Source: Escherichia coli (GTDB lineage: Bacteria > Pseudomonadota > Gammaproteobacteria > Enterobacterales > Enterobacteriaceae). From it: a stretch of 64,000 nucleotides of DNA. The stretch is taken from assembly GCF_045037415.1 (NCBI RefSeq), contig NZ_CP173438.1; one strand, given 5' to 3'. The notes below the pieces were generated by a model. That model did not search any database, was not told the DNA's origin, and saw only the letters and a program-made list of their open reading frames with translations. Below, piece after piece: positions 38,781 to 39,020 of the stretch. The position numbers and the translations under genes are program-made. Within the stretch, counting starts at the first letter, position 1. Every line of letters begins with the position of its first letter.

Positions 38781-39020
38781 TTACTGTTTATTCGAATGGC
38801 GTAATTGCTTGATTTTTTTCGACAGCGATATCGCATATCCCAGGCAGACAACGCCTAACGCAGCCTGACCGAAGTCAAAAGGTTCAAGATAGCCAGAAGA
38901 TAAAACTTTACATATCACGGAAATCAGTGCGCTGATGCCGCCAATGATGACCCACATACGCATTTGTGTGGTTTGTTTGAGCACGTTTTGTGGGGTGTTA
39001 TCCGTTTTCTTTATTGCCAT
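38781..39020 (-). CDS. small (79 aa) two-helix membrane protein, hypothetical
   Basis: MAIKKTDNTPQNVLKQTTQMRMWVIIGGISALISVICKVL...FGQAALGVVCLGYAISL; ATG at 39020 with SD gggagag 9 nt upstream; the 194-aa ORF-track version overlaps pncC and was trimmed. Confidence 0.6.
   Translation of the reverse strand: MAIKKTDNTPQNVLKQTTQMRMWVIIGGISALISVICKVLSSGYLEPFDFGQAALGVVCLGYAISLSKKIKQLRHSNKQ

Follow-up and report, generated by a model that had tools for sequence, protein, structure and literature searches.

We examined a stretch of 64,000 nucleotides from Escherichia coli (contig NZ_CP173438.1, assembly GCF_045037415.1; the whole stretch is hereafter referred to as the window) and focused on a small open reading frame (ORF) of 79 amino acids (aa) that lies between mltB and pncC. 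Comparison across related genomes showed that this ORF, whose pattern of conservation places it far beyond chance, is to all appearances a real protein-coding gene, functional and vertically inherited. Its product belongs to an uncharacterised, enterobacteria-restricted family of small hairpin membrane proteins that is already annotated as hypothetical.

The coding status of the small gene was assessed from its pattern of substitution. Over the first 69 codons, almost every pair among eight Escherichia lineages had a ratio of nonsynonymous to synonymous substitution rates (dN/dS) of 0.05-0.3. Variation was found in 44 columns of the alignment, split 11/3/30 over codon positions 1/2/3, and the other five frames were full of stops. 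Between genera, nucleotide identity was highest at second and lowest at third codon positions (e.g., 63/80/40% at positions 1/2/3 for E. coli vs Salmonella), which is the pattern expected of a translated frame. An earlier note, made from the letters of the window without database searches, had named frame conservation in related genomes and dN/dS among the checks to be made, and the former was set beforehand as decisive; the frame proved to be conserved, with the low dN/dS values given above.

The gene comprises 79 codons and a TAA stop (38783-38781), and its ATG start is located at 39018-39020 on the minus strand. A mechanical ORF list continues the open frame as far as an upstream GTG (39365); all orthologs align at the ATG at 39020, which the Prokaryotic Genome Annotation Pipeline (PGAP) uses as the start, too. 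Salmonella and Citrobacter retain the Shine-Dalgarno sequence as GGAGAG or GAAGAG, with unchanged spacing to the ATG, amid neighbouring bases that vary. The initiation region has essentially no structure (-6.6 kcal/mol, z +0.43). The region 38600-39300 is 100% identical to many complete E. coli genomes, e.g., that of strain SK1144. The description of this ORF in the earlier note, with a good Shine-Dalgarno sequence and ATG and a convergent mltB, was thus accurate: the coordinates are exact, the GGAGAG is conserved, the ATG is aligned across three genera, and the gene is convergent with mltB and divergent from pncC.

The same note had called the gene unannotated-looking, and this turned out to be wrong, as RefSeq/PGAP lists a hypothetical protein wherever the DNA exists (60/60 sampled carriers). 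WP_000985460.1 is the window protein itself, annotated at an identical sequence in strain SK1144, and the Salmonella ortholog at the same locus is WP_001519391.1, also a hypothetical protein; both are annotation records without a name, family model or function. The gene is missing from reference annotations because reference-type E. coli (e.g., the O157:H7 genome examined) are without this DNA, their mltB-pncC spacer being shorter by 314 bp. Literature searches by accession, UniProt identifier and locus names returned nothing on the small protein; one paper, which deals with how Salmonella ygaD and mltB respond to nitric oxide, was tangential only. The best Pfam match of the window protein was IncE, at 13.6 bits against a cut-off of 27, and neither the window protein nor 19 family members had a match at threshold in NCBIfam. 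PADLOC gave no defence-system match for the window protein, and searches of the PDB gave none by profile at E<=10 and none by Foldseek at E<=0.001, where two matches were meaningless. In Pfam, NCBIfam, PHROGs and PADLOC, the window protein and the 19 members had sub-threshold matches at most, of which those to IncE, SLATT, PspM and a PnuC-like phrog were treated as composition-driven noise.

We extended the family by two profile searches, one exhaustive over 1.8 billion representative proteins and the other over 90% clusters. They showed an unnamed family that is shared by Escherichia, Salmonella and Citrobacter and has more distant relatives in other Enterobacterales. The Escherichia homologs came from E. 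marmotae, E. whittamii, E. albertii, several unnamed clades and divergent E. coli alleles, and E. fergusonii proteins fell in the same 90%-identity cluster as the small protein. In Salmonella enterica the gene was found in many serovars and subspecies, with two variants each present on at least 1000 contigs, and several Citrobacter species carried it as well. The Salmonella and Citrobacter orthologs (81-83 aa; family range 79-83 aa) shared ~50% identity with the E. coli protein. At every Escherichia locus with flanks examined mltB was convergent and pncC divergent, and the same mltB/ORF/pncC slot was occupied in Salmonella and Citrobacter; these comparisons showed the position between mltB and pncC to be the apparent ancestral one for the family. 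In the window, the neighbours of the small gene are srlAEB, mltB, pncC, recA, recX and alaS. In four gene-bearing Escherichia loci (L010, L013, L014, L015; about 4370-5600) the srlAEB sorbitol phosphotransferase operon was missing, and the genes immediately after mltB were a gutQ-like SIS-domain gene and a norR-like sigma-54 activator gene.

Distant relatives exist at 30-35% identity. One of them (35%; L019, L020, 3268-5715) adjoins pncC and is parted from mltB by a ZnuA/ABC-3/ABC_tran operon; this ZnuA-type ATP-binding cassette (ABC) operon agrees with the reported insertion of zniCBA in Klebsiella, Enterobacter and Kluyvera (PMC10797113). Two other distant homologs, one in Affinibrenneria, lie in unrelated neighbourhoods. 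The sole plasmid match was the 728-kb NZ_LN868944.1, "plasmid 2" of Salmonella Senftenberg NCTC10384 (L037), which carries recX-recA-pncC-small gene-mltB-srlA and is thus part of the chromosome, deposited under a plasmid label. In 50,697 phage records we found no homologs beyond OR845620.1 (L036) and OR845594.1, two ~1.9-kb low-coverage contigs labelled "UNVERIFIED_ORG Escherichia phage ECO95" that contain the small gene in pieces, in a version like that of Salmonella or Citrobacter, and are probably bacterial chromosomal DNA in a phage preparation. By all these features, the small gene appears not to be mobile, being single-copy and chromosomal, without phage or plasmid features.

Among 5426 complete E. 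coli genomes, the small gene was present in 573, always as one chromosomal copy and never on a plasmid, and 4853 genomes (~89%) were without it. Alignment with O157:H7 H6437 revealed a gap of 314 bp, and the same gap was seen in the B2 strain clone D i2. As the gene is found in E. albertii, E. fergusonii, E. marmotae, Salmonella and Citrobacter, its presence is ancestral and the common E. coli state a deletion; on this comparative evidence, most E. coli, including K-12, have lost the small gene by this 314-bp deletion. Almost all carriers (546/573) were >=99% identical to the window, and many of those sampled were labelled O25:H4 or sequence type 131 (ST131); the remaining 27 showed 90-95% identity. 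The annotated coding sequence (CDS) was intact in each of the 60 carriers sampled. The second commonest E. coli allele (clusters P0003, P0100 and P0101; 94% identical to that of the window) differed from E. fergusonii proteins by 1-2 residues, and exchange with sister species may be the source of the gene in the minority E. coli carriers, too. Within 39091-39160, which adjoins the deletion junction, the gene-bearing and gene-less E. coli alleles were only ~60-70% identical, with ~100% identity beyond this segment; either the two haplotypes look old or the segment looks to be under different constraint when the small gene is present.

The allele in the window lies in a tract that resembles E. 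albertii more closely than E. coli. We mapped this tract by comparing the window with gene-less clone D i2 and with the E. albertii type strain, and found 99-100% identity to clone D i2 and 89-96% to E. albertii outside ~38160-39290. Outside the tract, each 150 bp of the window differed from clone D i2 at 0-1 positions; the differences became dense at 38178-39245, whereas only 12 differences from E. albertii were found inside the tract (~1.1 kb). Moreover, the 3' half of mltB in the tract was 6-12% divergent from that of another gene-bearing E. coli (L011). The reversal of identity, together with the divergence in mltB, indicates that the tract is foreign to E. coli, and the simplest reading is that it was imported from an E. 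albertii-like donor by homologous recombination, which would have restored the gene in the lineage of the window. An association study of E. coli bloodstream infection lists mltB (here 37657-38742) among its matches (PMC10395866); since half of mltB is E. albertii-like in the lineage of the window, such matches might simply tag lineage. The tract, which is near-specific for one allele group with O25:H4/ST131 among its sampled typed members, could thus serve as a lineage marker, and it could confound association studies in which mltB is flagged. The features of the locus are collected in Table 1.

Table 1 Coordinates of the small gene and associated features in the window
Feature	Position	Strand	Remarks
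CDS of the 79-aa small membrane protein, stop included	38781..39020	-	MAIKKTDNTPQNVLKQTTQMRMWVIIGGISALISVICKVLSSGYLEPFDFGQAALGVVCLGYAISLSKKIKQLRHSNKQ; ORF listing and PGAP CDS WP_000985460.1
Shine-Dalgarno GGGAGAG	39028..39034	-	GGAG core 9 nt upstream of ATG
A7 homopolymer, codons 67-70 (S-K-K-I)	38813..38819	-	Recurrent frameshift site; changes last ~10 residues only
314 bp missing from most E. coli	38777..39090		CTG at both junctions; whole gene and 70 bp upstream
Putative recombinant tract: 3' half of mltB, small gene, spacer, first pncC codons	38160..39290		99-100% identical to E. albertii NBRC 107761
GC-rich hairpin between the convergent stops of mltB (38742) and small gene (38781)	38752..38774		10 bp stem, 3-nt loop
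Divergent intergenic region common to small gene and pncC	39021..39201		Must contain the promoter of the small gene

Regarding the product, the two hydrophobic helices reported in the earlier note were recovered by hydropathy at residues ~22-40 and 53-66, with Lys/Arg confined to the two termini and an acidic loop of 12 residues between the segments. AlphaFold2, run on a 19-sequence family alignment, returned a helix-loop-helix (H9-41 and H47-78) of modest confidence (predicted local distance difference test, pLDDT, 63). The best conserved elements across the three genera were a juxtamembrane LKQ-x-x-Q-x-R-x-W on the predicted cytoplasmic side, a GG-x-x-A in helix 1, the loop SSGY-x-EP-x-D-x-GQ, an LG-x-x-CLGY in helix 2 and the SKKI at the start of the basic tail; residues S41, G43, Y44, P47, D49, Q52, L55, G56 and C59-Y62 were invariant in Escherichia, Salmonella and Citrobacter, and the helix interiors, including that of helix 1, changed conservatively. 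As Lys/Arg flank both ends, the positive-inside rule predicts an inner-membrane helical hairpin with both termini cytoplasmic, in which the short acidic loop would face the periplasm and the two helices would pack via their small-residue faces, GG-x-x-A in helix 1 and LG-x-x-CLGY in helix 2.

Conservation in the loop and flanking motifs favors specific contacts over bulk perturbation of the bilayer, and this pattern in turn favors a small accessory or modulatory subunit that would bind a larger envelope protein through the loop and the LKQ-x-x-Q-x-R-x-W motif. Such a protein may be dispensable under many conditions, which would explain its frequent loss. We therefore read the small gene, with a little more belief than doubt, as a vertically inherited two-helix gene whose product would form an N-in/C-in hairpin that modulates a larger envelope protein and is dispensable, a function that we infer from the conservation pattern. 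Several observations weigh against this reading. The structure model is of low-to-medium confidence, and the ~50% identity between Escherichia and Salmonella/Citrobacter points to fast evolution or relaxed constraint on the Escherichia branch. The only conserved neighbour relation is positional (pncC), and the most distant homologs lie in unrelated contexts. A sigma-70 consensus scan of both strands of 38650-39300 found no promoter-like site, although a weak promoter or read-through from mltB would be beyond such scans. Furthermore, recurrent frameshifts in the A7 run and frequent loss could mean decay in Escherichia, and sub-threshold matches to holin profiles leave room for a pore-forming role.

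The explanation that survives best beside the modulatory hairpin is that the gene was functional ancestrally and is now a neutral passenger heading for loss in Escherichia, present in the lineage of the window only by hitch-hiking on the recombination tract. The deletion in ~89% of complete E. coli genomes would fit this, as would the arrival of the gene on a 1.1-kb tract of E. albertii type, by which half of mltB was replaced too, the strong divergence of the Escherichia branch from Salmonella and Citrobacter, and the A7 frameshifts. These last correspond to a run of A8, which E. marmotae, Escherichia sp. E1130 and some E. coli and E. fergusonii possess; the resulting proteins have 74 or 77 aa and a C-terminus of ...LSKKNQAIT(SFE). 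In an 82-aa allele the A7 run is broken (AAGAAAA). Numerous frameshifted versions of the run were also seen in read-assembled contigs, some of which are possibly sequencing errors. As the frameshifts replace only the last ten residues, the basic tail seems to matter less than residues 1-69, or else decay of the gene has set in in certain lineages. A neutral passenger fits less well with frameshifts that touch only the tail after residue 69, or with the dN/dS of 0.05-0.3 and the invariant loop retained in the first 69 codons in E. coli, E. albertii, E. marmotae, E. whittamii and unnamed clades. The E. fergusonii proteins are, moreover, only 1-2 residues off E. coli alleles, and every one of the 60 sampled carriers retains an intact annotated CDS. 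On balance, we consider this explanation unlikely, while still worth keeping in view.

A second alternative, to which we give a small chance, is a domesticated holin-like (pinholin-like) or pore-forming peptide that would oligomerise via its glycine-rich helices and collapse the potential of the inner membrane or make it permeable, possibly in a functional link with the adjacent murein hydrolase MltB. The small protein and class II holins share a common design (~80 aa, two helices, predicted N-in/C-in, a small-residue-rich helix 1 and a basic C-terminal tail), the gene adjoins that of a lytic transglycosylase, and one UniRef entry names the E. whittamii protein "Holin". Among the 19 family members, four matched phrog_1129 "holin" at E 0.001-0.003, three matched PF04971 (phage 21 holin S) at E 0.006, where the window protein itself had no match, and one matched NCBIfam holin_2 at E 0.008. 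However, every one of these matches is below the family cut-off and concerns a minority of members. Profile comparison (hhalign) with the phage-21 holin gave 28% probability over 25 columns and placed helix 1 of the small protein on helix 2 of the holin, out of register; the phage-21 S query sequence had a 100% match in phage records, and its relatives were annotated as holin. Apart from the two unverified contigs mentioned above, there were no phage homologs, and housekeeping neighbours stand in place of a lysis cassette with endolysin or spanin genes. Nor is there a conserved dual start: Met1 is single, and in Salmonella and Citrobacter Leu stands in place of the internal M20 and M22. Conservation is highest in the predicted periplasmic loop, which is unusual for holins. 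As for MltB, the small gene is convergent with mltB, with no co-transcription or operon link, and the ABC transporter operon parts the homolog from mltB in the distant relative. MltB is, in addition, a lipoprotein with its own export signal. Of the holin-like role raised in the earlier note, the predicted two-helix N-in/C-in layout with a charged tail stood, and the profile match, the lysis cassette and the dual start did not.

A bolder form of this idea holds that a vertically inherited chromosomal hairpin of Enterobacteriaceae, either pore-forming or pinholin-like, would control the membrane potential or the turnover of murein, together with MltB or in stress. Its re-acquisition from E. albertii would then have been adaptive, and the gene no mere passenger, in an E. 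coli lineage that is apparently the pandemic O25:H4/ST131 clone. It is left standing because the family is uncharacterised, the architecture is holin-like, the holin matches are weak and 546/573 carriers share one allele, and we regard it as very improbable.

Improbable to a still higher degree is a type I toxin kept silent by an antisense RNA, which might arise from mltB read-through or from an internal antisense transcript. The small gene is hydrophobic in its product, patchy in E. coli and convergent with mltB, so that read-through would be antisense, and two plus-strand terminator-like hairpins lie inside the gene (38952-38971) and just beyond it (39085-39101). The first of these overlaps codons with variable third positions, and the second is no stabler than shuffled sequence (z -0.27). 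Known type I toxins are typically <60 aa with one helix, whereas the small protein has 79 aa, two helices and a conserved predicted periplasmic loop, and its gene is single-copy, strictly syntenic across three genera and under purifying selection. A consensus scan of 38650-39300 found no antisense promoter-like site; an Rfam scan at E<=1 gave only chance-level hya and DicF matches and no RNA family. No LexA box was found near the promoter region of the small gene: the sole match to CTGT-N8-ACAG in the 64-kb window is at 39702-39717 (CTGTATGAGCATACAG), just upstream of recA, and fits the expected recA LexA box, and a link to the SOS response was rejected on this basis. The suggestion of a toxin in the earlier note thus found no support in these features. 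Finally, a chance open frame in non-coding spacer, for which one might cite the missing promoter consensus, the missing family assignment and the absence of the DNA from K-12-type genomes, has a negligible probability and is effectively refuted by the codon-position pattern, dN/dS well below 1, the stop-rich other frames and the retention of frame, length, start and Shine-Dalgarno sequence at ~50% aa identity across genera with second > first > third position identity.

Turning to the flanks of the small gene, the hairpin at its 3' end has a free energy of -14 to -16.8 kcal/mol on the plus strand (z -2.6), where it forms a terminator-like site, and is weaker on the minus strand (-10.8 to -12.7 kcal/mol, z -1.2), where no U-run follows. 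The stem is maintained through base changes across lineages. As the minus strand is without a U-run, the hairpin is mainly the intrinsic terminator of mltB, and it may provide a 3' stem-loop for the mRNA of the small gene as well. The earlier note had described a hairpin shared with the 3' end of mltB; the stem is real, but a canonical terminator is formed for mltB only. Upstream of the gene, phylogenetic footprinting revealed cross-genus conserved blocks at 39091-39201, which belong to pncC, as they are also present in genomes without the small gene, and in the gene-proximal 70 bp conservation was limited to Escherichia. By eye, TAnnnT hexamers were seen ~33-39 nt upstream of the ATG in Salmonella and Citrobacter, with no convincing E. 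coli equivalent. Also judged by eye only, a sigma-32 (heat-shock) promoter-like element upstream of pncC (39121-39144, plus strand; GTAAAA, 12 nt, CCCCATCT) was conserved in Escherichia, Salmonella and Citrobacter, and K-12-type genomes carry CACCATCT at its second element.

Together, these findings tidy the record for a frame that looks unannotated from a K-12 perspective and appears to be a genuine, conserved small membrane protein gene deleted in K-12. They define a family in enterobacteria that is without a model in Pfam and NCBIfam, and we found no published study of it. With its sharply conserved predicted periplasmic loop and natural knock-outs in most E. coli, the family may offer a clean candidate for studies of small membrane proteins. 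Current understanding is not overturned, as this would be an ordinary small membrane protein; the main added value lies in the proof of coding status, the reason for its absence from K-12 and the likely recombinant origin of the allele in the window.

Compared with known systems, the small gene recalls TisB, HokB, IbsC, LdrD and DinQ, which are small hydrophobic inner-membrane peptides, often missed by annotation and strain-variable. These peptides, however, are shorter, have one helix, are antisense-paired and are often SOS-regulated or multi-copy, whereas the small gene encodes two helices and is single-copy and syntenic, with no antisense element or LexA box detected. The phage 21 pinholin S21 (PF04971, Phage_holin_2_1, class II) is closer in build, having ~70-80 aa, two helices, a small-residue-rich helix 1 and a basic tail; the small protein differs from it in the failed profile test, the lack of phage context, of endolysin or spanin genes and of a dual start, the conserved predicted periplasmic loop and the vertical inheritance. 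AcrZ, MgtS, MgrB, PmrR and SgrT, enterobacterial inner-membrane modulators of small size, represent a functional class rather than a homologous family for the small protein: no sequence similarity to them was detected with Pfam and NCBIfam, and it has two helices where they mostly have one. In common with them, it is a helical membrane protein of <100 aa from a chromosomal gene, of a kind often lineage-restricted and dispensable. These proteins work by binding a larger membrane protein and are conserved at membrane-water interfaces, as is the small protein.

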